Below, in pieces: positions 393 to 60,117 of a stretch of 64,000 bases of DNA. Location: assembly GCA_045656745.1 (NCBI GenBank), contig JAZORT010000028.1, positions 8,862 through 72,861 of the forward strand, in the 5' to 3' direction. Each line of letters opens with the position of its first letter. The first letter of the stretch is position 1. This DNA comes from Eubacteriales bacterium (GTDB lineage Bacteria; Bacillota; Clostridia; Oscillospirales; CAG-272). Made by a program: the position numbers and the translations under genes. A model generated the notes under the pieces. That model was not told where the DNA came from. It did no database searches and saw nothing but the letters and a program-made list of their open reading frames with translations.

Positions 393-396
393 AAGA

Positions 397-3252: not shown

Positions 3253-3267
3253 CTTTTGTTATAAAAT

Positions 3268-9744: not shown

Positions 9745-9756
9745 AGGAATTGAAAA

Positions 9757-10617: not shown

Positions 10618-10620
10618 GAA

Positions 10621-10653
10621 AAAGGGCTGACGAAAAGTCAGCCCTGAATTTTA
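10621..10653. terminator. bidirectional terminator between convergent genes
   Basis: Stem gggctgac (10624-10631) pairs with gtcagccc (10637-10644), loop gaaaa, flanked by A and T runs. Confidence 0.6.
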
Positions 10654-10660
10654 TCAAAAA

Positions 10661-11491: not shown

Positions 11492-11582
11492 TTTAATTTC
11501 TCCTTGAATTTTTGTTTAGTTTATTGTATAATACATCTGATAACATTACAATGGTCAAAAACGGAGAATATTATATAACCAG

Positions 11583-12668: not shown

Positions 12669-12764
12669 AAAAACGGCAAGAACTCATATGCTTCGAATAT
12701 TGTAAGGAATATTTGATGTCAAGGCGGTTTTAGTGAAAACTCAAGTCGTCTTATTCATTTTAGA

Positions 12765-12793
12765 TTGACAATATACCTAATTCGTGATATAAT
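12765..12793 (+). promoter_or_regulatory. perfect consensus sigma-A promoter
   Basis: TTGACA (12765-12770), 17-nt spacer, TATAAT (12788-12793), about 170 nt upstream of the ATG at 12965. Confidence 0.55.
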
Positions 12794-12964
12794 AAATATG
12801 TTGCACAATTTTACACACTAGTTCTATCAATATAGATTTATGTTGATGAAAATGCAAGACTTCCTTATCACATCACTATAAACGTTAAATTGTGTAATAA
12901 CAATGCGAGAAGCCATGTTTTAGTGAGCAGTTTTGACTACACACATTCTTATTGGAGGATACAA

Positions 12965-13369
12965 ATGCAAACAAACGATTTAATTTTCAGCACGCAAAAC
13001 ATCAAGTCAAAGCCTGTGTGGGGAATATGGGTTTTTATAATTGTTTTTCCTATTATGGCGTTTGTCGTTTTTCCTATACTATGGGCATCAATATTAAGCG
13101 GATTTGCAATAGGAATTACTGTTGTCGGTTTCACTAAAATCAAACAGACACAAAAATCTTATGTTGAGTTACACAGTGATAAAATTATCGGCATAGATAT
13201 CAAGGGAGTATCGTTTGAACTTCAATACAACGAAGTTGCTCGATGTGATTTTGCATCGGAAACAGTACGTATTTATTGTAACGGTGGTTATTATGTAGTG
13301 CGCACTCCCAATTGCGAGCAAAAAGTAATTAATATCATTAAACAGCAGAAGGCAATTAATGCTCAGTAA
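12965..13369 (+). CDS. small membrane protein (two TM plus soluble C-terminal domain), unknown function
   Basis: Start placed at MQTNDLIFS, which follows TTGGAGGA. Hydrophobic hairpin: VWGIWVFIIVFPIMAFVVFPILWASILSGFAIGITVVGF. It lies in an A+T-rich block. Confidence 0.6.
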   Translation: MQTNDLIFSTQNIKSKPVWGIWVFIIVFPIMAFVVFPILWASILSGFAIGITVVGFTKIKQTQKSYVELHSDKIIGIDIKGVSFELQYNEVARCDFASETVRIYCNGGYYVVRTPNCEQKVINIIKQQKAINAQ

Positions 13370-43785: not shown

Positions 43786-43871
43786 TGTGCGTGAGGTGGT
43801 CGATCCACGGCTTCGCCAAAAACAAAAGGATGCCACAAGGGCATCCTTTTGTTTTGGTGGAAACGGGTGGG
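43786..43871. repeat. copy 2 of the duplicated element, abutting and overlapping the 3' end of tRNA-Val
   Basis: tgtgcgtgaggtggtcgatccacggcttcgccaaaaacaaaaggatgccacaagggcatcctttt, followed by gttttggtggaaacgggtggg. The hairpin ggatgcc/ggcatcc with flanking A and T runs serves as the tRNA terminator. Confidence 0.7.
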
Positions 43872-43931
43872 CTCGAACCACTGACCCCCTGCATGTCAAG
43901 CAGGTACTCTGACCAACTGAGCTACGCTTCC
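43855..43931 (-). tRNA. tRNA-Val (anticodon GAC), CCA encoded
   Basis: Hand-folded cloverleaf: acceptor GGAAGCG/CGTTTCC; D arm GCTC-AGTTGGTCA-GAGT; anticodon arm CCTGC-TTGACAT-GCAGG; variable GGGTC; T arm AGTGG-TTCGAGC-CCACC; then A-CCA. Confidence 0.85.
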
Positions 43932-44071: not shown

Positions 44072-44295
44072 GCCAAACGAATCGAATATTTTTATTAAGG
44101 GTATTTTTTATTTATGGGGATATTATACCTTTTTTCGCTGTACACTATCGTTGTGGATTTAGCAAAAATGTAAACTCCAAGCGTTAGTGTACGGCTAGAT
44201 TTCATATCCCTATTCTAATTCTTCGATTTGTTTGGCGACAATCGGAGTTTGCGTTTTTCGGTGCGGTGACTTCGGTTGCCGCACTTTTTGTTTTT
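44072..44295 (+). promoter_or_regulatory. structured 5' leader with a long-range closing helix and an intrinsic terminator (candidate riboswitch/attenuator, class unknown)
   Basis: gccaaacgaatcgaa (44072-44086) pairs with ttcgatttgtttggc (44222-44236), 14 of 15 positions. An inner helix pairs gtacacta with tagtgtac. The terminator at 44261-44295 lies 25 nt before the ATG. Confidence 0.4.
44261..44295 (+). terminator. leader terminator with a UUCG tetraloop
   Basis: Stem gtgcggtgac pairs with gttgccgcac (10 bp including two G-U pairs), loop ttcg, followed by tttttgttttt. It sits between the promoter and the RBS GGAGGAATGAAAATG. Confidence 0.6.
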
Positions 44296-44320
44296 ATCGA
44301 AAACGAATGGAGGAATGAAA

Positions 44321-45271
44321 ATGGAAGAACAGAACAATCAGAATTTTGAAAAACAAGAAACCGATGAGAACAAAGCTAGCGAGTCGGGCAAACAAAAAAA
44401 GCCGTTATCGCGTAAAACGAAAATGGCTATTATCATTGGTGCCGCAGTAGCAGTCATTGCAATAGTAATAGCAATAATAATTGCATTTCTCGGAAATGGC
44501 AATCGCGAGCATACTCATAACTGGCGTTACAACACAACAAAAGACAGAACATGTACGGAAAACGGAATTATGATAAAGAAATGTGACGTTTGCGGAGAAA
44601 CTACAGCCATTGATCTTTTAGCCGAACATTCTTACGGAGACTATCAACGTATTCAAGCAAACTGTATAATGGAAGGAAAGCAAGCCCGTTTTTGTAAGGT
44701 ATGCGGTCACGAAGATTCGTACGCTATTTCCGCGCGCGACTCACATTCATTTTGGAGTGATTGGACTATAGTAGAAGAAGCCGACTGCTTAACCGAGGGT
44801 AAAAGAGAGCGCAAATGTTATTATTGCGATGAATATGAACGGGAAATCATTCCTGCGCAACATAAATATTTAAACGGAACATGTACCGTATGCAATCGCG
44901 GATTGTTAAATTTTGTACTCCCCGATGCACCTATAATCGTACACGATTTCATCTCTAACGATTTAATTGATGAAACGTGTAAAATAACATCAATAGAACT
45001 TAAAGAAATTGAATACCGCAACGGAAAATACACAATAACATTCGTTTGGTCCGGTGAAAAAACATATGACAATAATGGCGATAACTATTCTTCCTCGGTT
45101 GGATTTGCTTATAAGATATACGATTCCGAGGGGTTTGTCGTATATTCTTCACAAACAATGTCGGTCGCAGTTAAGGTTGGTGAAAAGTTCCGCAACGAGG
45201 AGTTTACTACTGTCAGTCTAGACATTGACCCCGACGAACAATATACGATGGAAATTTTGAATTTGGACTAA
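44321..45271 (+). CDS. membrane-anchored protein with Cys-rich (zinc-ribbon-like) repeats and a C-terminal beta-rich domain
   Basis: Start at MEEQNNQ, which follows GGAGGA. TM segment MAIIIGAAVAVIAIVIAIIIAFL. It has 3-4 repeats of H-x(1-3)-(W/Y)-x(6-9)-C-x3-G-x5-C-x2-C. Confidence 0.7.
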   Translation: MEEQNNQNFEKQETDENKASESGKQKKPLSRKTKMAIIIGAAVAVIAIVIAIIIAFLGNGNREHTHNWRYNTTKDRTCTENGIMIKKCDVCGETTAIDLLAEHSYGDYQRIQANCIMEGKQARFCKVCGHEDSYAISARDSHSFWSDWTIVEEADCLTEGKRERKCYYCDEYEREIIPAQHKYLNGTCTVCNRGLLNFVLPDAPIIVHDFISNDLIDETCKITSIELKEIEYRNGKYTITFVWSGEKTYDNNGDNYSSSVGFAYKIYDSEGFVVYSSQTMSVAVKVGEKFRNEEFTTVSLDIDPDEQYTMEILNLD

Positions 45272-46736: not shown

Positions 46737-49484
46737 ATGGGACTTTTTAAAACTTACAGTGAAAAACAAATAAAGCGCATTTTGCCCTTGGTTGACGCTA
46801 CGGAGGCTCTTGGAGAAAGATTTGCCGAGATGAGCAACGAGGAGCTGAAGGCTTATACCGATAAACTGAAGGGAGACCTTGCTGACGGCAAGACTCTTGA
46901 CGATATTCTTCCCGAGGCTTTTGCCCTTGTAAGAGAGGCAGACACCAGAGTGCTTGGAAAACGCCCCTACCGCGTGCAGATCATGGGCGGTATTCTCCTG
47001 CACCAGGGCCGTATTGCCGAAATGAAAACCGGTGAGGGTAAGACTCTTGTTGCTACAATGCCCGCATATCTTAACGCACTTTCGGGCAACGGCGTTCACA
47101 TCGTTACGGTAAACGATTACCTTGCTAAGCGTGACTCTGACGAGATGGGCAGAGTTTACGGCTTCCTCGGTCTTACTACCGGTCTTATTATCCACGGACA
47201 AAACGGCTCGGAAAAGAGAGCGGCGTACAATGCGGATATTACCTACGGAACAAATAACGAGCTCGGCTTCGACTATCTTCGTGACAATATGGTTGTTTAC
47301 AAGGAAAAGATGGTACAGCGCGGTCACAACTTTGCTATCATCGACGAGGTTGACTCCATTCTTATAGACGAGGCGAGAACTCCCCTTATTATTTCGGGTC
47401 AAAGCTCAAAGTCCACCGACCTTTATACCCTTGCTGACAGACTTGTAAGAACTATGAGCCGTCACGTTATCAAGGAGGTTGACGCCAAGGAGGACCTTGA
47501 CACCTACAAAGAGGACTTTATCGTTGACGAAAAGGCGAGAACTGCCGTTCTTACTCAGCACGGTATTGAAAAGGCGGAGAGATACTTTAACCTTGAAAAC
47601 CTTTCCGACCCTCAGAACGCAAGTATTTATCACCATGTAAATACCGCTATAAAGGCTCACGGCGTTATGAAGCGCGACGTTGATTACATTGTTAAGGACG
47701 GAAGCGTTATTATCGTTGATACGTTCACCGGCCGTCTTATGCCCGGACGCCGTTACAACGACGGTCTTCACCAGGCTATTGAGGCAAAGGAGGGTGTAAG
47801 CGTTCAGCGCGAGTCCCGCACTATTGCGACCATTACCTTCCAGAACTATTTCCGTATGTACAAGAAGCTTTCGGGTATGACGGGTACTGCTCTTACGGAA
47901 GAGGACGAATTTAAGCAGATTTACGCCCTTGACGTTGTTGAGGTTCCCACCAACAAGCCTATGATAAGGCTTGACTGCAACGATGTTGTTTACCGCACCA
48001 GAAGAGGAAAGCTTTACGCGATAGTTGAGCAGATAAAGGAATGTCACGAAAAGGGACAGCCCGTTCTTGTCGGTACAGTTTCTATCGACAAGTCGGAGGA
48101 GCTTTCGCAGATTTTGAAAAAGAGCGGAATCCCCCACACCGTTCTTAACGCAAAGCACCACGAAAAAGAGGCCGAAATCGTTGCTCAGGCAGGAAAATTC
48201 GGCAGTGTTACCATTTCTACAAATATGGCCGGTAGAGGTACAGATATTATGCTCGGAGGAAATCCCGAGTATCTTGCTAAAAACGAAATGCGCAAGGCAG
48301 GCTTTGAGGAAGGCCTTATCGCTATGGCTACAAGCTCCGCGCCCTCGGATGACGAGGAGGTAAGCCGAGCAAGAGCTACCTTTGCCGAGCTTTACGCAAA
48401 GCACAAGGCGGAAATCGCGCCTGAGGCTGAAAAGGTGCGCGAGGCGGGCGGTCTTTACATTCTCGGTACAGAGCGACACGAGAGCCGCCGTATAGACAAC
48501 CAGCTCCGCGGTCGAAGTGGCCGTCAGGGAGACCCGGGTGAGTCGAGATTCTTCCTTTCGCTTGAGGACGACCTTATGCGTCTTTTCGGCTCGGACAGAA
48601 TTATCGGTATGTGCGAGCGTCTCGGTCTTGACGAAAGGACTCCCATTGACGCGAAGATACTTTCGGGCTCTATTGAGCAGGCACAGAAGCGCATAGAGGA
48701 CAACAACTTTAACAGACGTAAGAACGTTCTTACCTACGACGATGTTATGAATCAGCAGCGTCAGGTTATTTATCAGCAGCGCTCCGAGGTGCTTCACGGA
48801 ATCAATATTTCCGAGACCATTACGGGAATGATAACCCGCTCGGTTGGCGAGACCTTTGACTTCTGCTTCGGTGTTGACACTCCTGAGGATTGGAAGATCG
48901 ACGAATTCAAAAACCATTACCTCGGCAAGCTTACCGATGAGCGCTTCGAGCTTTCTCTCGAGGAGCTTCGCGAGATAGACAGAGAGGATATGCGTCAGGC
49001 ACTTATCGACAAGGCTCTCGAAATCTATCACTCCAAGGATGAGCTGTTCTCTGCAGCTGAGGGTATGCCCGAAAACGCAATGCGCGAGGTTGAAAAGGTT
49101 ATCCTTCTTCAAAACGTTGACAAAAAGTGGATGGACCACCTTGAGGAGATGGATGAGCTTAAGGAATATGTCGGTCTTAACTCCTACGCACAGCGCGACC
49201 CCGTTGCAATGTACAGAATTCAGGGTGCGGATATGTTTGACCAGATGGTTGACGATATTAAGGAGGACACAGTAAGACAGATTCTTACCGTTACTCCCAG
49301 AGTTCAGTCCACCGAGCGTGTTCAGGTTGCAAAGCCTACCTCAGAGGGATTTGACGGCGGAAAATCCATAGTGCGCAAGCCCGTAACCGTTACCAAGACA
49401 GGCAGAAACGACCCCTGCCCCTGCGGCAGCGGTAAGAAGTACAAAAAATGCTGCGGCATGTCGGTTGCTGCCGATAAAGACTGA
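46737..49484 (+). CDS. secA: preprotein translocase ATPase SecA
   Basis: Start at MGLFKTYSEKQIKRI, which follows AAAGGAA. Walker A MKTGEGKTLVA, DEVDSILIDEARTPLIISG, TNMAGRGTDI, and the C-terminal zinc motif CPCGSGKKYKKCCG. Confidence 0.95.
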   Translation: MGLFKTYSEKQIKRILPLVDATEALGERFAEMSNEELKAYTDKLKGDLADGKTLDDILPEAFALVREADTRVLGKRPYRVQIMGGILLHQGRIAEMKTGEGKTLVATMPAYLNALSGNGVHIVTVNDYLAKRDSDEMGRVYGFLGLTTGLIIHGQNGSEKRAAYNADITYGTNNELGFDYLRDNMVVYKEKMVQRGHNFAIIDEVDSILIDEARTPLIISGQSSKSTDLYTLADRLVRTMSRHVIKEVDAKEDLDTYKEDFIVDEKARTAVLTQHGIEKAERYFNLENLSDPQNASIYHHVNTAIKAHGVMKRDVDYIVKDGSVIIVDTFTGRLMPGRRYNDGLHQAIEAKEGVSVQRESRTIATITFQNYFRMYKKLSGMTGTALTEEDEFKQIYALDVVEVPTNKPMIRLDCNDVVYRTRRGKLYAIVEQIKECHEKGQPVLVGTVSIDKSEELSQILKKSGIPHTVLNAKHHEKEAEIVAQAGKFGSVTISTNMAGRGTDIMLGGNPEYLAKNEMRKAGFEEGLIAMATSSAPSDDEEVSRARATFAELYAKHKAEIAPEAEKVREAGGLYILGTERHESRRIDNQLRGRSGRQGDPGESRFFLSLEDDLMRLFGSDRIIGMCERLGLDERTPIDAKILSGSIEQAQKRIEDNNFNRRKNVLTYDDVMNQQRQVIYQQRSEVLHGINISETITGMITRSVGETFDFCFGVDTPEDWKIDEFKNHYLGKLTDERFELSLEELREIDREDMRQALIDKALEIYHSKDELFSAAEGMPENAMREVEKVILLQNVDKKWMDHLEEMDELKEYVGLNSYAQRDPVAMYRIQGADMFDQMVDDIKEDTVRQILTVTPRVQSTERVQVAKPTSEGFDGGKSIVRKPVTVTKTGRNDPCPCGSGKKYKKCCGMSVAADKD

Positions 49485-49489
49485 CGGCT

Positions 49490-50185
49490 ATGGGATTCGG
49501 TATACTTTTCGTAGGATATTTCCTGCTTCTTAACATCAGCACACCCGAGCTTACCGACGCTGTTGCGGCGGCGGTAATGCTCTATGCCTTTTACAAGCTC
49601 AAAGAGGTCTGCCCCGAATTTAAAAAAGGGGTGGGCGCCTCTCTTGCCTTCTTGATTTTCGGCCTTTTCGAGCTTTTTGTTGCCGTATCATCGACTCTTG
49701 GCATTATAAGCTTGCCAGCCCTGCCCATAGGGCTTATACCAATGATTCGCCACCTTTTGGCGGCGGTTTGCTCATTCCTTATGCTTCTCGGAATGAGAGA
49801 GACGGCAAGCGAGGTTGAGCTGCCTGCTATTGCGAAAAAGTGCAACCGCAACTTATACCTTACGGCGGCAGTTTACGGAATACACATTCTTCTTGAAGCC
49901 GAAAGCGTAGCAAATCTTTTGCCTGCCGGCTTTGCGCTCGGACTTTACATAACCGCTCTTGTGGTTACTCTTGCAAGGCTTGCAGTAATAATTCTCAACC
50001 TTTCGGCTATCTATTCCTGCTATATGAGGATATGTATGCCCGGTCAGGAGGACCCGAAGCCTAAGCAGAGCCGCTTCGGTTTCGTTAACGACTTCCGCAA
50101 GCACCAAGAGGACAAGCAGAGAGAATACGCCGAATACAGACTTGAGAAATTGAAATCCAAGAAAAACAAAAAAAGAAAGAAATAA
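49490..50185 (+). CDS. polytopic membrane protein with a Lys-rich tail, unknown function
   Basis: About 6 TM segments. The C terminus is charged (KLKSKKNKKRKK). It starts 5 nt after secA. Confidence 0.65.
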   Translation: MGFGILFVGYFLLLNISTPELTDAVAAAVMLYAFYKLKEVCPEFKKGVGASLAFLIFGLFELFVAVSSTLGIISLPALPIGLIPMIRHLLAAVCSFLMLLGMRETASEVELPAIAKKCNRNLYLTAAVYGIHILLEAESVANLLPAGFALGLYITALVVTLARLAVIILNLSAIYSCYMRICMPGQEDPKPKQSRFGFVNDFRKHQEDKQREYAEYRLEKLKSKKNKKRKK

Positions 50186-50189
50186 AAAT

Positions 50190-51623
50190 ATGAGAAAAAA
50201 GAAAGAAAAGGACAGCTTTTCTTATTTTAAGCTTGCCGTAGCGCTGATTTTTCTCCTCAACCCTTGTATAAAATTCGTTGACCTTCTTGCGGATTTTGTT
50301 GCCTGCATTATTATTTCGAAAATGCTTTCGGGCTATTGCGACCGCTCGGAGGGCTTTACAGAGGCGAGAGATTCATTCGTTAAGCTGGGCTGGCTATCCT
50401 TTATGAAAATTCCTGCCTTTATCCTCGCGGTAATGATAAGAGGAAAGAACACGGTCGATAACGATATAAGCGTTCTTTTCACCCTTATTTTTGCAGTGTT
50501 TGAGGCTTATATGCTTATCGTTGCGGTGAAATGCCTCTTCTCTGCTCTTTTCCACGTTGGACTGCGCGGCGGAGCGGACGCAACCATTCTCCCCTTTTCC
50601 GCTTTGGGCAAGAAAATTCGCGTAAGGCCCGAAGTCTTAAAGGTTATGAGCTATATTTTCGCCGCTTTAAGGTCGGCTGCCTGCTTCCTTCCGGAGACGC
50701 TGATGCTTTCTACCACAGAGGATGCTTACGGAAACCCGAAGCTTTTCAGGCTGAAGGCTATGTATCCAAAAATATTCCTTATCGGCGTTTTTGTAACTCT
50801 TGCTTTGGGGTTGATTGTCTTTATATTGTATATGGCTTATTTCAGAGCCATTCGCAAGGAGGGCGCGCTGAAGAGCGGAATAATTTCGCTCCATACAGAG
50901 GGCGAGCTTCTTGAAATTGAGGAATATATCAACGCAAAGAGGCTTAAAAGAAAGCTTAGATTTATTGCACTTACATCATTCTTCTCGTTCGATATAGTCA
51001 TTGAAAATATGGCTAATATTGATATTGTTCCCGACTTTATTTTCGGAATTTTGATTACCCTTGCGACCTGCAAGCTGCTGAGCACGAAAAAGGTAAAGCT
51101 ACTTTTAGGAATACCTGCAGGGCTTTACACTTTGCTCTCGCTGGTAAACTTTGTTCTCACCTTGAATTTCCTTGACAGCTATGAATACATCTCTCTTGTG
51201 CACAAGGCTGCGAAGGACGCGTATCTTCCCATACTCAATATAGGAATTGCACAGTATTGCCTTTGGATAATCTCGATTTTTGTAGTCTGCTCGGTTTTAT
51301 ATACCTTTGTTAAGAAATATACGGGTATAGATGTTGACCAAAGGTCAAGGGTTACTGTGAAAAACGACCGCAGAAGACTCTCGGGAATTCTTGTTTTCGG
51401 CTTCCTCGGTACGGCGATCGGTCTTTGCAAGGTCATAGGTCTTTTCCTAAACTACAATATGTCGGTTATGGAATTTACCGTTCAAAACAGAGCGAAGGAT
51501 ATTATCACATCTCCTCTGCCCTGGTTTAACACATTCTCGTTCATTTTGAACATTGCTTTCGTTGCATACACCTGCTACTTCATTTCCTGCCTCACCGACG
51601 AGGTAGACTTGAAATACTCATAA
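50190..51623 (+). CDS. polytopic membrane protein, unknown function (distant N-terminal similarity to the preceding gene)
   Basis: Multiple TM segments. N-terminal LIFLLNPCIKFVDLLADFVACIIISKML compares with FLLLNISTPELTDAVAAAVMLYAFYKL of 49490..50185. Confidence 0.65.
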   Translation: MRKKKEKDSFSYFKLAVALIFLLNPCIKFVDLLADFVACIIISKMLSGYCDRSEGFTEARDSFVKLGWLSFMKIPAFILAVMIRGKNTVDNDISVLFTLIFAVFEAYMLIVAVKCLFSALFHVGLRGGADATILPFSALGKKIRVRPEVLKVMSYIFAALRSAACFLPETLMLSTTEDAYGNPKLFRLKAMYPKIFLIGVFVTLALGLIVFILYMAYFRAIRKEGALKSGIISLHTEGELLEIEEYINAKRLKRKLRFIALTSFFSFDIVIENMANIDIVPDFIFGILITLATCKLLSTKKVKLLLGIPAGLYTLLSLVNFVLTLNFLDSYEYISLVHKAAKDAYLPILNIGIAQYCLWIISIFVVCSVLYTFVKKYTGIDVDQRSRVTVKNDRRRLSGILVFGFLGTAIGLCKVIGLFLNYNMSVMEFTVQNRAKDIITSPLPWFNTFSFILNIAFVAYTCYFISCLTDEVDLKYS

Positions 51624-51639
51624 AAGGAAAGGTCTGCTT

Positions 51640-52581
51640 TTGGCAGATTGGGTTTTTTCATCAATGAAACCAAACAAATCTTTGGGCTTTGATTTTTCGG
51701 CAAAAATCAAGTCGCTTTCAGACAAGACTAAAGCTCTGCCCAAGAAGCTCAAAAATCTCTTAAAAAAAGAAAATTTCAAGACACTGTTTACAGAAAAGCT
51801 TGATGTTCTTGTTTCGGCACTTATTATTGCTACGGGCATTTGTTTTATTGTCTGTGACTACATACTCTTCAAGAGCGGCGGGGTAAGGCCTTATTCTGCC
51901 GAGAGGGTTGGAAAATTCCTTATTTTTCCTATGATCATGTTAGGGATTACGGCAGTTTTCGCCTTTATCGACGGCCTCAGAAAAAACAGACGCACCCTCT
52001 GCGAGCGCGGAGGATATAACGAGATGGCAAACGACCGCCTTGGCAGAATTACCAAAAAGCTTTTGGCGGACTTTGACCTTGGCTCGGCGTCCGAGGAGGT
52101 AAAGAGCGAGCTTTCGGCTCTTAGAAAAAAGAGGGTTAACACCCTTACCGTTGCTATATCAACTACCTCTACCGCTTTTGTTTTTTCGGTTATTACCCTT
52201 ATAAACACCGACAAATTTACGGTTGAGCATGTTAATGCCGATATTGCAAGGGCTGCGTGCGTTATTATTTTTGCCTCGGTATTAAGCTTTATTGCCTGGT
52301 GCGTTTATTCCTCGCAGTGCTTCAATACAAGAAACGAGGAGAGAAGAATAATCCGCGAGGCTCTGCGCGAAAATCCCGACCTGCGACTTCCCAAGGCTGA
52401 AAAAGAACAGAAAGGAAGACTCTCCCGCATTATTGAAAGCGAGAAGGCAGGCTTTATACTGAAGGCTTTGCTCCTTGCTGTTTCGCTCGTCCTTATCGTG
52501 CTTGGAATAATGAACGGCGGTATGGCGGACGTTTTGTCAAAGGCGGTAGCTATTTGTATGGAGTGTATAGGAATTGGCTGA
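51640..52581 (+). CDS. membrane protein ending in a CXXC-IGIG motif (CD1871A-like C-terminal module)
   Basis: TTG start lies 7 nt after AAAGGAAAGG; an alternative ATG is at 51664. The C-terminal ...LLLAVSLVLIVLGIMNGGMADVLSKAVAICMECIGIG consists of a TM helix plus C-x2-C at the extreme C terminus. Confidence 0.6.
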   Translation: MADWVFSSMKPNKSLGFDFSAKIKSLSDKTKALPKKLKNLLKKENFKTLFTEKLDVLVSALIIATGICFIVCDYILFKSGGVRPYSAERVGKFLIFPMIMLGITAVFAFIDGLRKNRRTLCERGGYNEMANDRLGRITKKLLADFDLGSASEEVKSELSALRKKRVNTLTVAISTTSTAFVFSVITLINTDKFTVEHVNADIARAACVIIFASVLSFIAWCVYSSQCFNTRNEERRIIREALRENPDLRLPKAEKEQKGRLSRIIESEKAGFILKALLLAVSLVLIVLGIMNGGMADVLSKAVAICMECIGIG

Positions 52582-52582
52582 T

Positions 52583-54196
52583 ATGAAAAACATTTTTACA
52601 AAAATCAAAAACTTTTCTGTGCGCCACGCTCCCACAAAGCGCAGACTTATTCAGGTTTATTCCGCCCTGCTCTTTAACGCAAACCTGAAGGGATATATTT
52701 CCGGCTCGGGCGGTATATTTAAGGGAGATACAAAGAATTTCTGCACACCGGGTCTTAACTGTTACTCCTGTCCGGGCGCAATAACATCCTGTCCTCTCGG
52801 TGCATTGCAAAACGCCTTTGCTTCAAGCGGAAAATCGGCACCCTATTATATGCTCGGTATAATTCTTTTGTACTGTGTAATGTTCGGCCGTTGGATATGC
52901 GGTTGGCTTTGCCCATTCGGTCTTGTTCAGGACCTTTTACATAAGATTAGGACACCCAAGGTGAAAAAGAGCAGAATTACGAAGGTGCTTTCGGTATTCA
53001 AGTATATTTTGCTTGTAGTTTTTGTGGTGATTTTACCTCTTATTTATGTTCTTCGCGATATTCCTCTGCCTGCGTTCTGTAAATACATTTGCCCCGAGGG
53101 TACATTCGGCGGAGCGCTCGGCCTTTTGATAAATCCCGCAAACGACGGCTTCTTCTCAGGTCTTGGTCCGCTCTTTACCTGGAAATTTATACTGATGATT
53201 TCCTTTATTGTGGCGGCGGTGTTTATTTACAGAGTATTTTGCCGTTTCTTCTGCCCTCTCGGCGCTATTTACGGTCTGTTTAACAAGATTGCAATTTTCG
53301 GCATTAAGCTTGAGAAAAAGGCCTGCGTTGACTGCGGAAAGTGCGTTACAGCCTGCAAGCTCGATATTAGAGAGGTTGGCGACAGAGAGTGTATTCAATG
53401 CGGTGACTGTATTGCGGTTTGTCCCACTCAGGCAATTACCTGGAAGGGCTCGAAGATATTCCTTCCCAAAAACGATTTTGAAAAGGATACTTCCTCGGTT
53501 TGCTCCGAGGATGCAACCAACGTTATAACCGTAAACAACAACGCAGTTGCGGAAAATGCGGCAGAGCGCTTCAAGAAGAGATCGAGAATAACCGCATCGG
53601 TAATTCTCGCATCGGTGCTCCTTGCTGCTCTTGTTTACTTTAACATAGTTGATCCGCTTATCAACAAAGACGAGCGCCCCGATTACAGCGACTTTGACGA
53701 CGAGGGCGTTGACGAGGAGCTTGCAAAGATACCCTTCGGCGAGGAGGTTGGCGACAGATGTCCCATTATGACTCTCGACCTTGTTGACGGCTCGGGAAGT
53801 ATTTCTATTTCCTCACTTCGCGGAAAGGTTGTTGTTATAAACTTCTGGGGCACCTGGTGCGGCCCCTGCAAGGCGGAGCTTCCCTACTTTAACAGAATAG
53901 CCTCGGAATACGAGGGTGAGGTTGTTGTTCTTACCATTCACACCGCGTATAACAAGACCTCAAAGGCTGAGGCTCCCGGATATATTAGCGAGCATTTTGA
54001 CGGCTCGAAGATGCTCTTTGCTTACGATATTCCCTATGACGATTACAGCGATGAGTATTACACGGCGCTTGGCGGTCTGGGCGGTTATCCTATGACCCTT
54101 GTTCTTGATGACAGAGGCGTTATTTCCTTTACAAAGCAGAATTCGATGCATTACGAAGAGCTGAAGGATGCTGTTGAAAACGCGTTAAACAAATAA
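52583..54196 (+). CDS. membrane polyferredoxin (NapH/MauN-like, 2x[4Fe-4S]) fused to a TlpA/ResA-like thioredoxin domain
   Basis: ATG at 52583 follows the upstream TGA by 1 nt. Motifs: CYSCPGAITSCP, CGWLCPFG, CRFFCPLG, CVDCGKCVTACK and CIQCGDCIAVCP. After an extra TM segment comes FWGTWCGPCKAELP (thioredoxin WCxxC). Confidence 0.8.
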   Translation: MKNIFTKIKNFSVRHAPTKRRLIQVYSALLFNANLKGYISGSGGIFKGDTKNFCTPGLNCYSCPGAITSCPLGALQNAFASSGKSAPYYMLGIILLYCVMFGRWICGWLCPFGLVQDLLHKIRTPKVKKSRITKVLSVFKYILLVVFVVILPLIYVLRDIPLPAFCKYICPEGTFGGALGLLINPANDGFFSGLGPLFTWKFILMISFIVAAVFIYRVFCRFFCPLGAIYGLFNKIAIFGIKLEKKACVDCGKCVTACKLDIREVGDRECIQCGDCIAVCPTQAITWKGSKIFLPKNDFEKDTSSVCSEDATNVITVNNNAVAENAAERFKKRSRITASVILASVLLAALVYFNIVDPLINKDERPDYSDFDDEGVDEELAKIPFGEEVGDRCPIMTLDLVDGSGSISISSLRGKVVVINFWGTWCGPCKAELPYFNRIASEYEGEVVVLTIHTAYNKTSKAEAPGYISEHFDGSKMLFAYDIPYDDYSDEYYTALGGLGGYPMTLVLDDRGVISFTKQNSMHYEELKDAVENALNK

Positions 54197-54202: not shown

Positions 54203-54241
54203 CCCTGCGTTTCCCTAGAGGGAGGCGCAGGGTTGTTTTTT
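54203..54241. terminator. bidirectional terminator
   Basis: Stem ccctgcg (54203-54209) pairs with cgcaggg (54226-54232), with an inner ccct/aggg pairing. ttgtttttt follows, and an A run lies upstream. Confidence 0.6.
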
Positions 54242-55202
54242 ATATTTTAACGGTAGTTTTTGCGGTTATTATGGTAGGATTGCCGTCAAGCATAATATAG
54301 ACGGGGATATCCGAGGGATTTTCTATCTCGGAATCGCTGACGCGAAGGGCTTTTACCGCATCCTCGTAGGCGAGAATGTCACCGACAGAGGCGTAATAAT
54401 AATCGTTTTGGCGGTTGCCGTATTTTTCGGCAAAGGCGAGAAGGTCGCCCCACTTGTTCGCGGTTTCGTAATCTACCGAATGTACTCCGATAGAGAAGAA
54501 TTTAAGCTCGCCGTCATCGGGATAATTTTCGTAAAGCTCGGCTACTGCAAGAAGGCTGTTGTGAGAGGCGTTGTAGGTCCAATTAAATCTATCGGCAGGC
54601 ATTGCAAAGCCTGTTGTGTCGCGGAGGTCGCCTGTCTTTCTTATATTCTGGTATCCTTCCTTGATAAGGTGCTCGCGCGCGCCGACAGAGCCTCTGCCGT
54701 GGGGCCAGGCAAATCCGCGGACGCTTCCTTTACCGAATACTTCCTCGAGGCCTGCCTTTGTTCTGTCGGCAAAGCGGTTATAGTCCTCGTTCGGAGAAAC
54801 GGCGTGCCAGCCTCTCGGCACATCGTATGTACCCGTATTCTTTCCCCATATTTTATAGATATGAACAAGATATACGCCCTCTTCGGTCTTGTAATAATGG
54901 TCGAAGTCGGGGCGGTTGCGGTCAAAGGGCTCGGTTGCTATTTCATCGGTGATGTCATCATCAATAGCTATGGCGTGCTTTTCGCAATGGTTTGCTATCT
55001 CATAGCCCTCGTAAAGCTCGCGGTAAAACTCGGGCGGTTTAACATTCCAATGGTGGAGATTAAAGGTGCCGAAAATTCCCGCGGGGCGGACAATGTCAAG
55101 AAATTTTTTATCCATTTCGAAATTGCCGTCGTCAATGGTGAATGTTATTGATTTTCTTGTAAAGCCGGGGAAAAAGTTTTTATCAACTCTTTTATTTTGC
55201 AT
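54240..55202 (-). CDS. polysaccharide deacetylase (CE4/NodB-like), cytoplasmic
   Basis: NodB-like motifs: TFTIDDGN (TFDDG), ANHCEKH (H-x4-H), FAWPHGRG (R/W-P-x-G). It overlaps the cysE stop by 11 nt. Confidence 0.7.
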   Translation of the reverse strand: MQNKRVDKNFFPGFTRKSITFTIDDGNFEMDKKFLDIVRPAGIFGTFNLHHWNVKPPEFYRELYEGYEIANHCEKHAIAIDDDITDEIATEPFDRNRPDFDHYYKTEEGVYLVHIYKIWGKNTGTYDVPRGWHAVSPNEDYNRFADRTKAGLEEVFGKGSVRGFAWPHGRGSVGAREHLIKEGYQNIRKTGDLRDTTGFAMPADRFNWTYNASHNSLLAVAELYENYPDDGELKFFSIGVHSVDYETANKWGDLLAFAEKYGNRQNDYYYASVGDILAYEDAVKALRVSDSEIENPSDIPVYIMLDGNPTIITAKTTVKI

Positions 55203-56040
55203 TGTAGTAAACCACCTCTCCTGCGGGGACGGAGCGGGTCAGCCATACGTTACCGCCGATAACGCATCCGTCACCTATTTTAGTGTTTCCGCCGAGTATT
55301 GTTGCATTTGCGTAAATTACAACGCCGTTTCCGATGTCGGGGTGGCGCTTTATTCCCTTTACGGGGTTCCCCTCTTCGTCAAGCTCGAAGCTCTTAGCTC
55401 CAAGGGTGACGCCCTGATATATCTTTACTCTGTCACCTATGGTGGTTGTTTCACCAATGACTATACCGGTGCCGTGGTCGATGAAGAAATATTCGCCGAT
55501 TGTTGCGCCCGCGTGGATATCAACACCCGTTTTTTCGTGGGCAAACTCGGTCATAAGCCTTGAGATATAAGGAATTGAGCGAAGGTAGAATTCGTGGGCG
55601 AGGCGGTATATGGATATGGCGTAAAAGCCGGGGTAAGACAGTATTACCTCCTCGGGCGACCTTGCGGCAGGGTCTCCCTCGTAAAGCGCGATAACATCCT
55701 TTAAGAGCTTTTGCTTTATTGCGGGCAAGAGGCCGAGAATTTCGTAGGTTATCTTCTCGGTATCCACAACAGAATCCTCGTCAAAGAAATAATAAGAGGC
55801 GGTTATCTGCCTTTTTAACAGAGTGAAAACCTCTTTCGCAACCTCGGAAAGCCCCTTTCCCTCATCCTCATCAAGAAGGAAGTATTCAGGAAACATAAGG
55901 TGCTGAATTTTCTTTATTATTTTAACCACCTCGTTTCTCGAGGGGACCATTACGGTATGTTTTTTAAAATAACTGCACGAAAGCTCACTTGATGCCGAAA
56001 GCTCACATAAAACCGCACTTATCTTTTCATCGTAGGACAT
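55192..56040 (-). CDS. cysE: serine O-acetyltransferase (long EpsC/CysE type)
   Basis: Left-handed beta-helix hexapeptide repeats: GVDIHAGATIGEYFFIDHGTGIVIGETTTIGDRVKIYQGVTLG...IGNGVVIYANATILGG. RBS GGAAAGGAG. Confidence 0.85.
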   Translation of the reverse strand: MSYDEKISAVLCELSASSELSCSYFKKHTVMVPSRNEVVKIIKKIQHLMFPEYFLLDEDEGKGLSEVAKEVFTLLKRQITASYYFFDEDSVVDTEKITYEILGLLPAIKQKLLKDVIALYEGDPAARSPEEVILSYPGFYAISIYRLAHEFYLRSIPYISRLMTEFAHEKTGVDIHAGATIGEYFFIDHGTGIVIGETTTIGDRVKIYQGVTLGAKSFELDEEGNPVKGIKRHPDIGNGVVIYANATILGGNTKIGDGCVIGGNVWLTRSVPAGEVVYYNAK

Positions 56041-56079
56041 ATAAGTCTCCTTTCCTTGCGAAGAAAATAATATAGGTTA

Positions 56080-56108
56080 ATTTTATCACACACTACCCCG
56101 CTTTGCAA
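56080..56108 (-). promoter_or_regulatory. promoter of the cysE-deacetylase operon
   Basis: On the reverse strand: TTGCAA, 17-nt spacer, TAAAAT. The leader is only about 35 nt, so there is no room for a T-box or riboswitch. Confidence 0.45.
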
Positions 56109-56334
56109 CACTTTTTTAAAATTTTGGGGGATAAATTTGTTTTTTCGTTTTTTGGGGAAATTACGATGCAAATATTTTTTCTTTTTGAACAAAATATTAC
56201 AAATAGCCGTTGATTTTTATTATTATGTATGTTATACTATATTTGTAAAGATATGTCTGCACAGCAGGACTGCTTGATGCTATAAAAAGAAAGGAAGCGG
56301 CGGTGTTTTTTTACCGCGGCTTTGGTTATATAAA

Positions 56335-59300
56335 ATGGGAAAAGGGATTTATACTTACTATAAAAACCGTCTCGTTGAGATAGGAGGCGGAAACAAGTGC
56401 CTCTATCTGAAAAAGGTCGTAAGACGCGGCGCGTATGATGTTGGCCGCATTTTCAGCACCCGTGAAAAGAAGATTGCGGAGCTTTTCGACACTCTCTGGA
56501 ACGGCAGGGGCTCCTCTTTCACTCTTCTTTGCGAAGAAGAGGTTGACGAAATTGCCGAAAACATTTCTTCGACAGAGCCTGACGAGGCCGAGGGTGAAGA
56601 GGAGAAAAAGTCTTCAAGAAAATCTAAGGGCAACGACAAAATAAAGCTGCTGGAAGCAGAGGTTGCCAGGGTTAAGGAAATAAAGCGCGAGATTGAGGAA
56701 ATCGAGCGCGAGACGGGAAGAAACGAGCTTTACTTAGGCTATCCTTTTGTTTTCGGCTCTGTGTCCCAAGGCTCAAGCCGCTCTATGATAAAGGCACCCC
56801 TTGTGCTCTTCCCCATAAGGATTGACATTCCCGATGACAGAACGGTTGAGATAAGCCTTAACGAGGCGGAGAAAATTCAGCTTAACCGCGCTCTTATCCT
56901 ATCCTATGCTCAATCAAAGAAGGTTGACATTGAGAACCTTGAAATCGAGTTTGACGATTTTTCAAGCTTCAAGGGGATAAAGCAGCTAGTTGACTATCTT
57001 AACCACGCTAAAATCAAGGTGGAATACACCACCTCAAAGAATATTTACCCTTATTCAAGGTTTAAGGAGCCTGACGAGGACAGCGAGCTTTCGTTAAGAT
57101 ATGCCGCAGTTCTTGCGCGCTTCCCCCTCTCTAACTCGATTTATAACGATTACACTCTTCTCGAGCGTAAAAACCTTACTAACGATGCGATAAACGAGCT
57201 TCTTCGCACCTCTAAGAAGAGCGGATTTAAGCTCTTTGGCAAGATTAAGGCTTTGCGCGGCGGAGCAAAGGCTAAGCGGGATAATTCGAAAAAATCCTAT
57301 ACTGCAAAGGCAAGCTACACCGTAAAAATGCTTGACTACGCTCAGTCCGAGGTAGTACGCAAGGTTGACGAGCTTGGTAACATGGTTATCTACGGCCCTC
57401 CGGGTACGGGAAAATCCCAAACTATCGTTAATGTTATTACAGATGCCGTTGTAAAAGGCAAAAAGGTACTTGTTGTTTCACAAAAGAAGGCGGCTCTCGA
57501 TGTTGTTTACTCCCGCCTCGGCACTCTTAACGAGTCGGCAATGTATATCAACGACGAGGCAAAGGAGAAAAAGGCCTTCTACGAAAAGACATACGCTCTG
57601 CACAAGAGACTTGTTCACGGAAGAAAGGCAGAAATCGAGCCTCGCCAGGCAGAATTCGACGAGCTTGAGGAAAAAATTCTTAACGAGCAGAACACCCTTG
57701 AGTCTATGTACGCGCTTCTTAACAACAAGCGTCCATTCGGACTTTCACTTACCGAGATGTATTCCTCGTCCTATATGTTAAACAAGGATTCGGGCGAATA
57801 CGGGGCATATCTCAATATGCTTGAGTGTCCTGACATTCTCGCTATGAATTACAAGGAGCTTTCCGAGGCGCTCTTTAAGATAAAGGCAAAAAATCTCTCC
57901 GAGACCTATTACGAATTTGCTCAGGAGAAGAATAAAAATCCCCTTATTGAGCTTATGCTCCCCGATGTTGAGATACACACCCTCGGCATTGTAAGGGATG
58001 GGCTTACCGAGGCAGAAAAATCCAGACGCGGTCACTTTAATTTCGCAAAATACCCCTATCTCAGGCAGGTGCTTGCTCACTACAACCACCTTGACGACCA
58101 AAAAAAGCGACGCGCCATTGTAAAGCTTGTTGCAAAGCTGGAAAATCCCGACTCCCTCTTTAACAAAAAGGCGGAGGAGAAAATGTCGGCGCAGTTTGCT
58201 GACACAGTTGAGGCTATCAGGCGTTATATCGAAAAATACGACTGCTTAAAGCAGGTTATGAGCGCAGACGGTTACTTCTCGGTTATTGACAACCTTTTAA
58301 GAGGAAACACCGCCTTTGTTAAGTATGTTTTCGAGGCTATTGACCATTATCTCGAGCTTCGAGATGTTACAAATCTTTTCAGAGCGATGGACAAGGGTGT
58401 TGTCAGCGTTCTTGAATTCGCATTCAACACTACAAAGAATGAAAAGGAATACAAGGAGCTTATTGATAAAGTAATGCTTCTTAGAATATACCACGAGCTG
58501 ACCATTGCGGAGGAGGAGTGCAAGGATTCTCTTGCTATGCTTCTTGACTTCCCGAACGTTACCTCCCGCATTTACAAGCTCAAGGAGGCGGAGCTTTCGG
58601 TTGCGGCAAAGCTGTGCGCTGTAAAGAGCTCGGGCAACTACCGCGAGATGTATTCCGCTGCGGAAAATGCAAAGGACTACCTCTACCAAATCTCAAAGGA
58701 GCAGAAATTCTGGCCTATCAGAAAGATGATGGAGGTTTACGGCAACTTTGTAACCACCCTCTTCCCCTGCTGGCTCCTTTCCCCGGAGAACGTTTCGGCA
58801 ATTCTTCCTTTAACGAAGAATATGTTCGATGTTGTAATCTTCGACGAGGCTTCGCAGGTATTTATTGAAAGCACAATACCCACCATATACCGCGGAAAGA
58901 ACATTGTTGTTGCGGGTGACTCAAAGCAGCTTCGTCCCTCGGCAACCTTTATGAAGAGATATATGGGTACCGATCCTGAGGTTTTGGAGGATTACTCGGT
59001 GCAGGCGGCGCTTGAGGTTGAGAGCCTTCTCGACCTTGCGGTTTCACGATATGAAAGCGCAAATCTTACCTATCATTACCGCAGTAAGCACCAGGAGCTT
59101 ATCGACTTCTCCAACTGTGCATTCTATTCATCAAATCTTCAGATTGCTCCCAATATTTCAACCAACAAGGCAAACAGACCTATCGAAAGATACAAGGTTG
59201 ACGGTCGTTGGGTGGACAGAACAAATCCCACCGAGGCAGAAAAGATTGTTGAAATCCTTGAAAAGATTTTTAAGACCAGAAAGAACAACGAGAGCATTGG

Positions 59301-60117
59301 TATTATAACCTTTAACATTGACCAGCAGACCTGCATTGCCGATGCCATTGAGAAGGAAGCAAGGCAGAACAAGAGCTTCGGCGCTTATATTGCCGAGGAG
59401 CGCCTCCGCACAGACGGCGGCGAGGACACAAGCCTCTTTATCAAAAACCTTGAAAATGTTCAGGGTGACGAGAGAGATATTATCATCTTCTCCATTGGAT
59501 ATGCTCCTGCGGAAAACGGCAAGGTTCATTCAAGCTTCGGCTCTCTTTCGACAGAGGGCGGTGAAAACAGACTTAATGTTGCTATAACCAGAGCGAAATC
59601 GAAGATTATCGTTGTTACCAGCATTGAGCCTGAGGACCTGAAGGTTGAAAACTCGAAGAACCTTGGACCGAGATTGCTGCGCGATTATCTTGCCTACACT
59701 AAGGCGGTTGCGGAAAGCGACAACGATGGCGCGAGGGCAATTCTGCGCGGTCTTAACCCTGCGGAAAAGGCTGAGGAAGAAATCCCGACGGGTCTTCCCC
59801 GCACAGAGGATCAGATTAAGGCAGGGCTTGAAAAGCTGGGCTACGCGGTGCATACGGGTCTTGGCAACGAGAACAACCGCATTTCCCTTGCGGTCTATGA
59901 CGAGAAGGAGGACAGATACCTTGTCGGCGTAATTCTCGACACCGATGCCTTTGCCTCCTCGCCCGCTTCTATGGAGCGAGATGTTTACAAGCCCAAGTTC
60001 CTTGAGGCAAGGGGTTGGAATCTTATGCGAGTTTGGTGCAGAGATTTCTGGATTTCTCCTGAAAAGGTTGTAAAATCTATCGCTTCTGCCGCTGAAAAGG
60101 CAAAAAAGAAGGCATAA
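56335..60117 (+). CDS. 1260-aa SF1 (Upf1/Dna2-like) helicase with N-terminal DUF4011-like and C-terminal DUF3320/REase-like regions
   Basis: Walker A VIYGPPGTGKSQTI, motif II VIFDEASQV, then GDSKQLRP, YRSKHQELIDFSN, VQGDERDIIIFS and LNVAITRAK. The C terminus FLEARGWNLMRVWCRDFW is typical, from memory, of DUF3320-containing helicases. Confidence 0.8.
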   Translation: MGKGIYTYYKNRLVEIGGGNKCLYLKKVVRRGAYDVGRIFSTREKKIAELFDTLWNGRGSSFTLLCEEEVDEIAENISSTEPDEAEGEEEKKSSRKSKGNDKIKLLEAEVARVKEIKREIEEIERETGRNELYLGYPFVFGSVSQGSSRSMIKAPLVLFPIRIDIPDDRTVEISLNEAEKIQLNRALILSYAQSKKVDIENLEIEFDDFSSFKGIKQLVDYLNHAKIKVEYTTSKNIYPYSRFKEPDEDSELSLRYAAVLARFPLSNSIYNDYTLLERKNLTNDAINELLRTSKKSGFKLFGKIKALRGGAKAKRDNSKKSYTAKASYTVKMLDYAQSEVVRKVDELGNMVIYGPPGTGKSQTIVNVITDAVVKGKKVLVVSQKKAALDVVYSRLGTLNESAMYINDEAKEKKAFYEKTYALHKRLVHGRKAEIEPRQAEFDELEEKILNEQNTLESMYALLNNKRPFGLSLTEMYSSSYMLNKDSGEYGAYLNMLECPDILAMNYKELSEALFKIKAKNLSETYYEFAQEKNKNPLIELMLPDVEIHTLGIVRDGLTEAEKSRRGHFNFAKYPYLRQVLAHYNHLDDQKKRRAIVKLVAKLENPDSLFNKKAEEKMSAQFADTVEAIRRYIEKYDCLKQVMSADGYFSVIDNLLRGNTAFVKYVFEAIDHYLELRDVTNLFRAMDKGVVSVLEFAFNTTKNEKEYKELIDKVMLLRIYHELTIAEEECKDSLAMLLDFPNVTSRIYKLKEAELSVAAKLCAVKSSGNYREMYSAAENAKDYLYQISKEQKFWPIRKMMEVYGNFVTTLFPCWLLSPENVSAILPLTKNMFDVVIFDEASQVFIESTIPTIYRGKNIVVAGDSKQLRPSATFMKRYMGTDPEVLEDYSVQAALEVESLLDLAVSRYESANLTYHYRSKHQELIDFSNCAFYSSNLQIAPNISTNKANRPIERYKVDGRWVDRTNPTEAEKIVEILEKIFKTRKNNESIGIITFNIDQQTCIADAIEKEARQNKSFGAYIAEERLRTDGGEDTSLFIKNLENVQGDERDIIIFSIGYAPAENGKVHSSFGSLSTEGGENRLNVAITRAKSKIIVVTSIEPEDLKVENSKNLGPRLLRDYLAYTKAVAESDNDGARAILRGLNPAEKAEEEIPTGLPRTEDQIKAGLEKLGYAVHTGLGNENNRISLAVYDEKEDRYLVGVILDTDAFASSPASMERDVYKPKFLEARGWNLMRVWCRDFWISPEKVVKSIASAAEKAKKKA

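Follow-up and report, generated by a model that had tools for sequence, protein, structure and literature searches.

What do the membrane-protein genes lined up behind secA in this stretch of Eubacteriales DNA encode, and which of them belong together? The question turns on the last two of four open reading frames (ORFs). ORF3 (51640-52581, + strand, 313 amino acids (aa) from a TTG start) encodes a membrane protein that ends in a CXXC motif, and ORF4 (52583-54196, +, 537 aa) encodes a membrane polyferredoxin fused to a thioredoxin; coordinates are those of the window, by which we mean the whole 64,000-nucleotide (nt) stretch that was analysed. We found that ORF3 and ORF4, as subunit A and subunit B/C, respectively, form a strictly conserved, uncharacterised gene pair of gut Clostridia, and that the conserved unit is this pair and not the row of four genes. 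On balance, the sequences make it likely that the two products form an obligate membrane complex that moves reducing equivalents from the cytoplasm to the extracytoplasmic thioredoxin. The pair of the window is itself an ordinary member of a large uncharacterised family, built from known parts. The literature that we searched held no publication describing the ORF3-ORF4 system or the function of the CD1871A family, to which the ORF3 tail belongs; the sole match to CD1871 was an ATP-binding cassette (ABC) permease under another strain's numbering.

The C-terminus of ORF3 reads ...KAVAICMECIGIG-stop, with AICMECIGIG as its final residues, and the signature C-x-x-C-[IV]-G-x-G stands at the extreme C-terminus behind a hydrophobic helix (...IVLGIMNGGMADVLSKAVAICMECIGIG-stop). 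A preliminary description of this locus had recognised a tail of the CD1871A type, and residues 277-313 indeed matched the NCBIfam model NF040920 (CD1871A_fam) with 45.7 bits against a cut-off of 32, over model positions 2-38 of 38; the tail is conserved in every homologue. The last helix and the tail (N-G-G-M-A-D-V-L-S-K-A-V-A-I-C-M-E-C-I-G-I-G) constitute the CD1871A domain (52456-52578, +), predicted to face outward, with the tail cysteine codons at 52555-52557 and 52564-52566. The glutamate within the CxEC sequence is nearly invariant. Like other members of the CD1871A family, ORF3 thus shows a match to the whole model, a motif at the very C-terminus behind a helix and a gene that adjoins one for a 4Fe-4S membrane protein. 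It departs from the family in having four more helices ahead of the domain: CD1871A proteins are usually single-helix proteins of about 40-60 aa (the NCBIfam model type being 'domain'), whereas ORF3 has 305-313 aa, depending on the start codon, and five helices. Forms of 46-57 aa were found in other loci.

The long form of ORF3 is not a peculiarity of this locus. A word-indexed search gave 6 relatives and made it look rare, a reading that was overturned by the neighbourhood and exhaustive profile searches: proteins of at least 225 aa account for 75 of the 83 proteins encoded upstream of ORF4 homologues in other genomes, and the exhaustive profile search of 1.84 billion representatives placed 2806 clusters (at 50% identity) in the ORF3 family at E<=1e-3. 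In the long form, good conservation is confined to the tail and to one motif of the first outer loop, L-x3-G-x3-P-Y-x3-R-V (51865-51909, +), with the invariant columns L76, G80, P84, Y85, R89 and V90 and the family consensus Y-x3-G-x2-P-Y-S-R-E-x-V. No Pfam family was matched by ORF3, and a Foldseek search with its structure model (mean predicted local distance difference test score (pLDDT) 60.8) returned nothing below E 0.5.

The association of the two genes was assessed in two samples: a genome sample of 80 loci fetched by ORF4 similarity and 3 fetched by ORF3 similarity (L001-L083; 84 loci with the window), and a sample of 80 metagenome loci picked solely by a degenerate DNA pattern for the tail. 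In 84 of the 84 genome loci, the ORF4 homologue is immediately preceded by a co-directional gene that terminates in CxxC-[IV]-G-[LIM]-[GF]-stop, with F as the last residue in L047. The two genes are mostly 1-13 nt apart, or overlap. Since the tail motif occurs exactly once per genome locus and always directly upstream of the ORF4 homologue, the adjacency is far beyond chance. The tail-selected metagenome loci gave the same picture, with an ORF4-like gene directly downstream of the tail gene in 78 of 80 and a usual overlap of 8 nt. In one of the other two (L150, OHUA01004431.1), the first ~24 codons of an ORF4-like gene are present before the sequence breaks off ~73 nt past the tail-gene stop and continues as unrelated sequence; comparison with L144, from the same species, identifies the break as an apparent assembly chimera or rearrangement. 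The other (L145) has 79 nt only after the tail gene. There is no real exception to the pairing in this sample, and the rule given in the preliminary description, that CD1871A genes typically adjoin genes for 4Fe-4S membrane proteins, holds for 84/84 genome and, counting L150, 79/80 metagenome loci.

The pairing extends over every size class of tail protein found in the metagenomes (46-57, ~100, 145-180 and ~256 aa), all of which have an ORF4-like partner. More than 7700 ORF4 homologues were found at E<=1e-10, and the best 120 are full length including the thioredoxin. All 83 genome loci have it in fused form; in four metagenome loci (L097, L117, L131 and L146), ORF4 is split into a ~300-aa polyferredoxin and a following gene for a membrane-anchored thioredoxin of 189-356 aa, which has an N-terminal signal anchor. 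Thus, whether fused or split, the thioredoxin is always present: every complete partner has one, in the same or the next gene. The preliminary description had regarded the long N-terminal region and the partner's own thioredoxin as special to this locus, and both turn out to be usual. No natural ORF3::ORF4 fusion was seen among the homologues; the N-terminal extension of the L047 ORF4 homologue is unrelated to the tail.

ORF4 matched Pfam Fer4_5 (PF12801) with 74.4 bits (cut-off 22) in three stretches, and it also matched 4Fe-4S dicluster families and, at aa 389-529, Redoxin, AhpC-TSA and Thioredoxin. Its membrane part carries a motif in outer loop 1, C54-x5-C60-x2-C63-x6-C70-P (52742-52795, +; FCTPGLNCYSCPGAITSCP), which is conserved in 83 of 84 homologues, and three CX3CP motifs: C106-G-W-L-C110-P at the inner end of helix 2 (52898-52915, +), C166-K-Y-I-C170-P in the outer loop between helices 3 and 4 (53078-53095, +) and C220-R-F-F-C224-P at the inner end of helix 4 (53240-53257, +), the first and third of which are common to NapH. 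A ferredoxin-like domain follows (53324-53425, +; Pfam Fer4, Fer4_7 and Fer4_9), with two CxxCxxCxxxC motifs (C248-C258 and C270-C280-P) that are expected to bind two [4Fe-4S] clusters. The two ferredoxin clusters counted in the preliminary description are therefore retained, and its two CX3CP-type motifs become three, plus the C54-C70 motif. Each of the 18 cysteines of the membrane and ferredoxin parts is kept in 83-84 of the 84 homologues, the eight ferredoxin-motif cysteines in 84/84.

The relationship of this core to NapH is one of superfamily. ORF4 scored 73.3 bits against the NapH/MauN model TIGR02163 (cut-off 213.05) and 59.3 bits against the NapH model NF007013 (cut-off 234), so the label 'NapH/MauN-like' holds at the Fer4_5 superfamily level and fails for the family proper; by these scores, ORF4 is NapH-like at the superfamily level only. 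We aligned ORF4 (52583-53620) with E. coli K-12 napH (b2204; L212 2719-3579). The two proteins have in common an RRLxQ helix, the four-helix core, a CX3CP motif behind each of helices 2 and 4, and a 2x[4Fe-4S] domain at the C-terminus. At the outer motifs of ORF4, C54-C70 and C166/C170 (six cysteines), NapH has the cysteine-less sequences PLMTLQ and EWINP. As judged from this alignment, the outer units of the Fer4_5 core carry cysteines in the ORF4 family and not in NapH, and the cysteine-less NapH counterparts suggest that the core is an ancestral four-unit repeat of alternating topology. The proteins also differ in what follows the core, the output of the NapH family being NapG or a flavin mononucleotide (FMN)-binding domain and that of ORF4 a fifth helix and a thioredoxin. 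Unlike NapH, NosR, RdhC (PceC), MauN and CcoG, moreover, ORF4 has an obligate partner subunit with a C-terminal CXXC. NapH-like PF12801 proteins have been proposed to be modular transmembrane electron-transfer units that feed extracytosolic FMN domains (Meheust et al. 2021, PMC8238504); in these flavinylated 'NapH-like' systems and in ORF4 alike, the module would connect electrons of the inside or the membrane with a redox domain beyond the cytosol.

The C-terminal part of ORF4 (53747-54169, +) is a thioredoxin-fold domain of the TlpA/ResA/Etrx type, predicted to be extracytoplasmic, with the active site W-C-G-P-C at aa 425-429 (53855-53869; C426 and C429). It matched Pfam Redoxin (PF08534) with 52.7 bits (cut-off 26.6), and its closest solved relatives, both by sequence and by predicted fold, are ResA, Etrx1/2, TlpA and CcmG, in agreement with the TlpA/ResA-type thioredoxin of the preliminary description. 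The scores lie below the equivalog cut-offs for ResA (55 vs 170 bits), TlpA (46 vs 230), StoA (41 vs 210) and DsbE (38 vs 123). The domain was modelled with a pLDDT of ~90 or higher, and Foldseek gave target TM-scores (template modelling scores) of 0.82-0.87 for ResA and Etrx2; solved structures matched the thioredoxin and ferredoxin parts only, both in the profile search and by Foldseek, and none matched the Fer4_5 membrane core. The CxxC is present in 84/84 homologues, among which C-x-P-C variants of the active site occur, and the cis-proline (P503) in 83/84. A peroxiredoxin reading of the AhpC-TSA match was rejected because the active site, W-C-G-P-C, is of the thioredoxin/TlpA type. Four homologues (P0099, P0114, L050 and L083), of ~660-820 aa, have two tandem C-terminal thioredoxin domains, the second copy lacking the CxxC in L083.

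On which side of the membrane do these cysteines lie? Topology was predicted by applying hydropathy and the positive-inside rule to averages of 75 ORF3 and 84 ORF4 homologues. ORF3 has five predicted helices, which put its N-terminus inside and its tail outside. Independent support for the outside location of the tail comes from P0006 (L213 101-1666), in which a lipoprotein signal and a secreted BspA-type leucine-rich repeat (LRR) domain precede two helices and the same tail; its gene is immediately followed by one for a Fer4_5-Redoxin protein, and the surroundings, with polysaccharide deacetylase and hexapeptide-repeat genes, are syntenic with the window. The predicted helices of ORF4 are at ~19-40 (weak), 90-108, 135-153, 202-220 and 337-355, in agreement with those modelled by AlphaFold2, in which the last helix spans 320-360. 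The fifth helix (aa 337-355; 53591-53647, +), a hydropathy peak, joins the cytoplasmic ferredoxin domain to the outside. Mean numbers of lysine plus arginine residues were 6.1 and 7.4 in the inside loops and 1.1, 3.2 and 0.9 in the outside loops; the value of 6.1 belongs to the loop after the first CX3CP motif, which places it inside, and those of 7.4 and 0.9 to the segments before and after helix 5, which puts the thioredoxin on the outside by prediction. Accordingly, C106/C110, C220/C224 and the eight ferredoxin cysteines are predicted to be inside, and C54/C60/C63/C70 of loop 1, C166/C170 of loop 3, C426/C429 and the CXXC of the ORF3 tail are predicted to be outside.

With the tail CXXC, the thioredoxin CXXC and the extra ORF4 cysteines predicted to be outside and the ferredoxin clusters inside, a trans-membrane relay is the most economical reading of the pair. 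The preliminary description had proposed such a relay to an outside thiol, and its proposal withstood the findings on tail conservation, on topology, where the cysteine motifs proved to be compatibly placed, and on co-occurrence. The relay is probably ferredoxin-driven and independent of DsbD/CcdA, and would reduce extracytoplasmic thiols. A low-potential cytoplasmic donor, most likely ferredoxin, would reduce the two [4Fe-4S] clusters of ORF4, from which electrons would enter the NapH-type four-helix core at its inner CX3CP motifs, C106/C110 and C220/C224; these motifs may be Fe-S ligands or redox disulfides. No cytoplasmic donor gene is conserved near the pair in the 83 loci, which fits a general donor. 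Electrons would then cross to the outer motifs (C54/C60/C63/C70 and C166/C170), arrive at the CXXC of the ORF3 C-terminus, which may act as a relay disulfide or a cluster ligand, and from there arrive at the WCGPC of the fused ResA/TlpA-like thioredoxin. The thioredoxin, finally, would reduce disulfides of surface or secreted proteins.

Such a system would do the job of DsbD/CcdA while being unrelated to it. ResA, Etrx1/2, TlpA and CcmG are extracytoplasmic reductases fed by CcdA or DsbD, and these proteins and StoA share with ORF4 the output, a membrane-tethered thioredoxin (in ORF4 placed on the outer face by prediction), and the proposed job. The difference lies in the supply: a cytoplasmic thioredoxin is the donor in the DsbD/CcdA pathway, whereas ORF4 is an Fe-S polyferredoxin with a proposed ferredoxin-like donor and a thioredoxin of its own. 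A search confined to ORF1-ORF4 gave no Pfam or NCBIfam match at E<=0.1 to DsbD/CcdA (PF02683), whose membrane domain has two essential cysteines in P-C-x-x-P helices. Precedents for parts of the proposed chemistry exist, by analogy only. In ferredoxin:thioredoxin reductase and heterodisulfide reductase, one-electron Fe-S carriers reduce a two-electron disulfide; these enzymes are cytoplasmic, whereas the proposed site in ORF3-ORF4 is in the membrane or at its outer face, and no sequence relationship to them was detected. The intramembrane Fe-S centre of Nqr/Rnf is held by cysteines of membrane segments of inverted topology, an arrangement that a metal centre of the pair would share; here, too, no sequence relationship was detected.

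A more specific version of the proposal, which we advance tentatively and hold to be rather less than probable as a whole, is that the pair represents an unrecognised, DsbD/CcdA-independent class of transmembrane disulfide reductase, in which electrons from ferredoxin would pass through cysteine-ligated centres on both faces of the core. The CxEC of the CD1871A tail, beside the outer centre, would convert one- to two-electron transfer, as in ferredoxin:thioredoxin reductase, and the fused thioredoxin would either hold surface proteins of these gut Clostridia, which are strict anaerobes, in a reduced state or act as a reductant of external disulfides (e.g. those of Cys-rich lipoproteins). The established route of reducing power to extracytoplasmic thiols is the cysteine cascade of DsbD/CcdA, fed by cytoplasmic thioredoxin; an Fe-S route, if true, would be a second solution, in a gene pair that is common in gut Clostridia. 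It would also explain what the CD1871A family and the outer-loop cysteines do, and make a tractable case for NapH, NosR and RdhC, in which the role of CX3CP and the way that electrons cross the membrane core are at issue (PMC5928378).

Several points weigh against the relay as proposed. The evidence for it, namely the domains present, the strict pairing of closely spaced or overlapping genes, the cysteine conservation and the sequence-based sidedness, is computational throughout, and the direction of flow, which we infer, is argued solely from the WCGPC motif and the fold class. The loci come mostly from metagenome-assembled genomes of related gut Clostridia, with one abundant species dominating the metagenome sample, so the counts overstate independence. 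The AlphaFold2 model of ORF4 has a pLDDT below 50 at 41-90, 160-173 and 236-316, which are the cysteine loops. Helix 1 of ORF4 (aa 19-40) is weakly hydrophobic, under the hydropathy threshold; loop 1 is placed outside by the way in which helices 2-5 are oriented, irrespective of this helix. It would be unusual for a protein inserted by Sec/YidC to have an Fe-S cluster assembled on its outer face. Finally, in NapH, NosR and RdhC, too, the CX3CP motifs may be either metal ligands or disulfides (PMC5928378).

The genes around the pair in other genomes bear on what the thioredoxin may act upon. Within 6 kb of the pair, 22 of 83 loci have an extra secreted thioredoxin/Redoxin lipoprotein (600-1200 aa, with Redoxin and immunoglobulin (Ig)-like domains), 22/83 have Cys-rich lipoproteins of ~540 aa, and 26/83 have a divergent giant S8 subtilase with PA, Fn3-like and BspA LRR domains. 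Examples of such neighbours in L020 lie at 2-4723, 7629-8336, 8381-10000 and 10066-13149. These neighbourhoods fit an extracytoplasmic thiol function, and they hint at the maintenance of surface proteins or the degradation of disulfide-rich substrates in the gut. The window itself has no neighbours of these three kinds, the secreted thioredoxin/Redoxin lipoprotein, the ~540-aa Cys-rich lipoprotein and the giant subtilase. It does encode, at 44276-45271 (+), a type II membrane protein with a helix at aa 51-69 and ~262 aa outside, containing 12 cysteines and four CxxC motifs in repeats of the form H-x-[WY]...C-x2-[EN]-G-x5-C-x2-C. Similar cysteine repeats are found in the lipoproteins flanking the pair elsewhere, which makes this protein a possible client of the outside thiol system.

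Could the electrons run the other way? The thioredoxin would then form disulfides in secreted proteins, and electrons would drain inward to a cytoplasmic acceptor, as in DsbB-DsbA or VKOR-thioredoxin fusions. The predicted architecture is the same as that of the VKOR-thioredoxin fusions: in these and in DsbB-DsbA, too, a polytopic redox module in the membrane works with a thioredoxin fold on the outside, to which it is coupled or, via a helix, fused. The Cys-rich secreted lipoproteins near the pair in 22/83 loci could be folding clients, and the window has its Cys-rich type II membrane protein 2.4 kb upstream. VKOR-thioredoxin and DsbB-DsbA, however, are quinone-dependent oxidases without Fe-S clusters, whereas ORF4 combines ferredoxin clusters with the canonical reducing active site WCGPC, for which C-x-P-C variants occur within the family, and its fold class is that of ResA/TlpA/Etrx, not that of DsbA. 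Moreover, a ferredoxin domain with low-potential [4Fe-4S] clusters makes a poor sink for electrons derived from thiols. We regard the oxidising direction as unlikely, though it is the alternative that survives best.

The second alternative keeps the outward direction of the relay and changes the donor: the core would oxidise menaquinol, as a NapH-type quinol dehydrogenase, and pass electrons outward to the thioredoxin, with no more than an accessory role for the cytoplasmic clusters, as has been proposed for NapGH. In its favour are the features common to ORF4 and E. coli NapH (the RRLxQ helix, two of the CX3CP motifs and the two ferredoxin motifs), the 73 bits on TIGR02163 and the quinol oxidation proposed for the membrane part of NapH (PMC5928378). 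That score, however, is far under the NapH cut-off of 213, and none of the nap, mau, nos and rdh genes was found at 44-60 kb of the window or among the clustered neighbours of the 83 loci. Menaquinol (~-75 mV) is, besides, a poor reductant of a thioredoxin-type disulfide. Quinol as the source of the electrons therefore appears quite unlikely to us.

The third alternative concerns metals. The outer cysteines, together with the CxEC tail, would be a site at which a metal ion such as Cu or Fe is bound or reduced, in the manner of CcoG, a Fer4_5 protein that reduces Cu(II), and the TlpA-like domain would have a metallochaperone as its client, just as TlpA serves ScoI. Ten conserved outside cysteines and the nearly invariant glutamate of the tail could form metal sites, and complexes of TlpA with ScoI and CoxB were among the structural matches. 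The thioredoxin motif, however, is generic, the pair has no conserved neighbour among transporter, Sco, copper or iron-uptake genes, and we know of no evident cuproenzyme to be matured in the hosts, which are fermentative gut Clostridia. A role in metal handling is, in our judgement, very unlikely, and we retain the relay from cytoplasmic ferredoxin to the outside thioredoxin as the preferred reading.

What, then, of secA and the first two genes? secA (46737-49484, +, 915 aa), ORF1 (49490-50185, +, 231 aa), ORF2 (50190-51623, +, 477 aa), ORF3 and ORF4 are co-directional, with intergenic gaps of 5, 4, 16 and 1 nt, as given in the preliminary description, ORF4 starting 1 nt past the ORF3 stop. 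ORF1, a membrane protein with a lysine-rich C-terminus, and ORF2, a polytopic membrane protein, matched no Pfam or NCBIfam family. The weak N-terminal similarity that had been reported between them did not hold up (BLASTP E 0.15; hhalign probability 0.1%). A defence-system reading was tried and dropped, PADLOC finding nothing meaningful for ORF1-ORF4: nothing for ORF2, and a weak, chance-level match (E 0.0057) for ORF1.

The notion of a four-gene module fared no better in other genomes. Among the 83 genome loci, relatives of ORF1 and ORF2 stand beside the pair only in L003, a close syntenic relative. In L004-L006, of the same clade, secA is directly followed by ORF3-ORF4, and likewise in L007, at a contig end. 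Overall, the loci with secA ahead of the pair are the window and 6 of ~90 genome-derived loci (L003-L007 and L084); the linkage is synteny confined to one clade, with secA no functional part of the system. In L001 and L002, the pair lies behind an unrelated operon, without secA there, and more distant pairs lie in unrelated contexts. L084 (JGI 3300029305) contains, at 8001-10316, a 771-aa gene (P0198), found on two contigs, that is a fusion of ORF2 and ORF3 homologues (31% identity over 468 aa and E 5e-66 for the ORF2 part) and lies between secA and the Fer4_5-thioredoxin gene. Since L003 and this fusion are the only sources of ORF2 relatives, a metagenome scan with the ORF2 alignment having found no more, ORF2 is a lineage-restricted accessory, which, to judge from the fusion, may interact with ORF3. 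ORF1 is probably not part of the ORF3-ORF4 system, and its linkage and that of secA look like local synteny. That ORF1-ORF4 act together with SecA, e.g. in redox quality control at the translocon, is scarcely credible: the tight gaps (5, 4, 16-40 and 1 nt), the lack of a strong terminator between secA and ORF4, the synteny kept in L003 and the fusion again found behind secA are outweighed by the 82 of 83 genome loci without ORF1 and ORF2, by the loci with secA directly before ORF3-ORF4, by the distance of most pairs from secA and by the fruitless scan for ORF2.

The row is nevertheless probably transcribed together with secA. A strong terminator-like site was found directly after ORF4 only (54203-54242, +), consisting of a hairpin (54203-54232, 13-bp stem with 9 GC pairs) followed by TTGTTTTTTA; none was found between secA and ORF4. 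A weak hairpin with a T run (51631-51649, +; 8 pairs, 3 GC), located between the ORF2 stop and an ATG at 51664, overlaps the TTG at 51640; it may be due to chance or may act as a partial terminator. An alternative start for ORF3, ATG 51664, would give a protein of 305 aa and an ORF2-ORF3 gap of 40 nt; as it is the start used by the homologues P0001-P0003, it may be the true one rather than TTG 51640. In a scan of 40-64 kb of the window, Rfam identified tRNA only and no other RNA element, the tRNA gene lying at 43858-43931 (-; RF00005, 58.9 bits). Downstream of ORF4, the region 54240-60117 encodes a polysaccharide deacetylase (-), a hexapeptide-repeat protein (-) and a 1260-aa helicase of the DUF4011/AAA_11 type (+); these genes are syntenic with those of L003, L084 and L213, and the synteny marks the clade in which secA precedes the ORF3-ORF4 pair.

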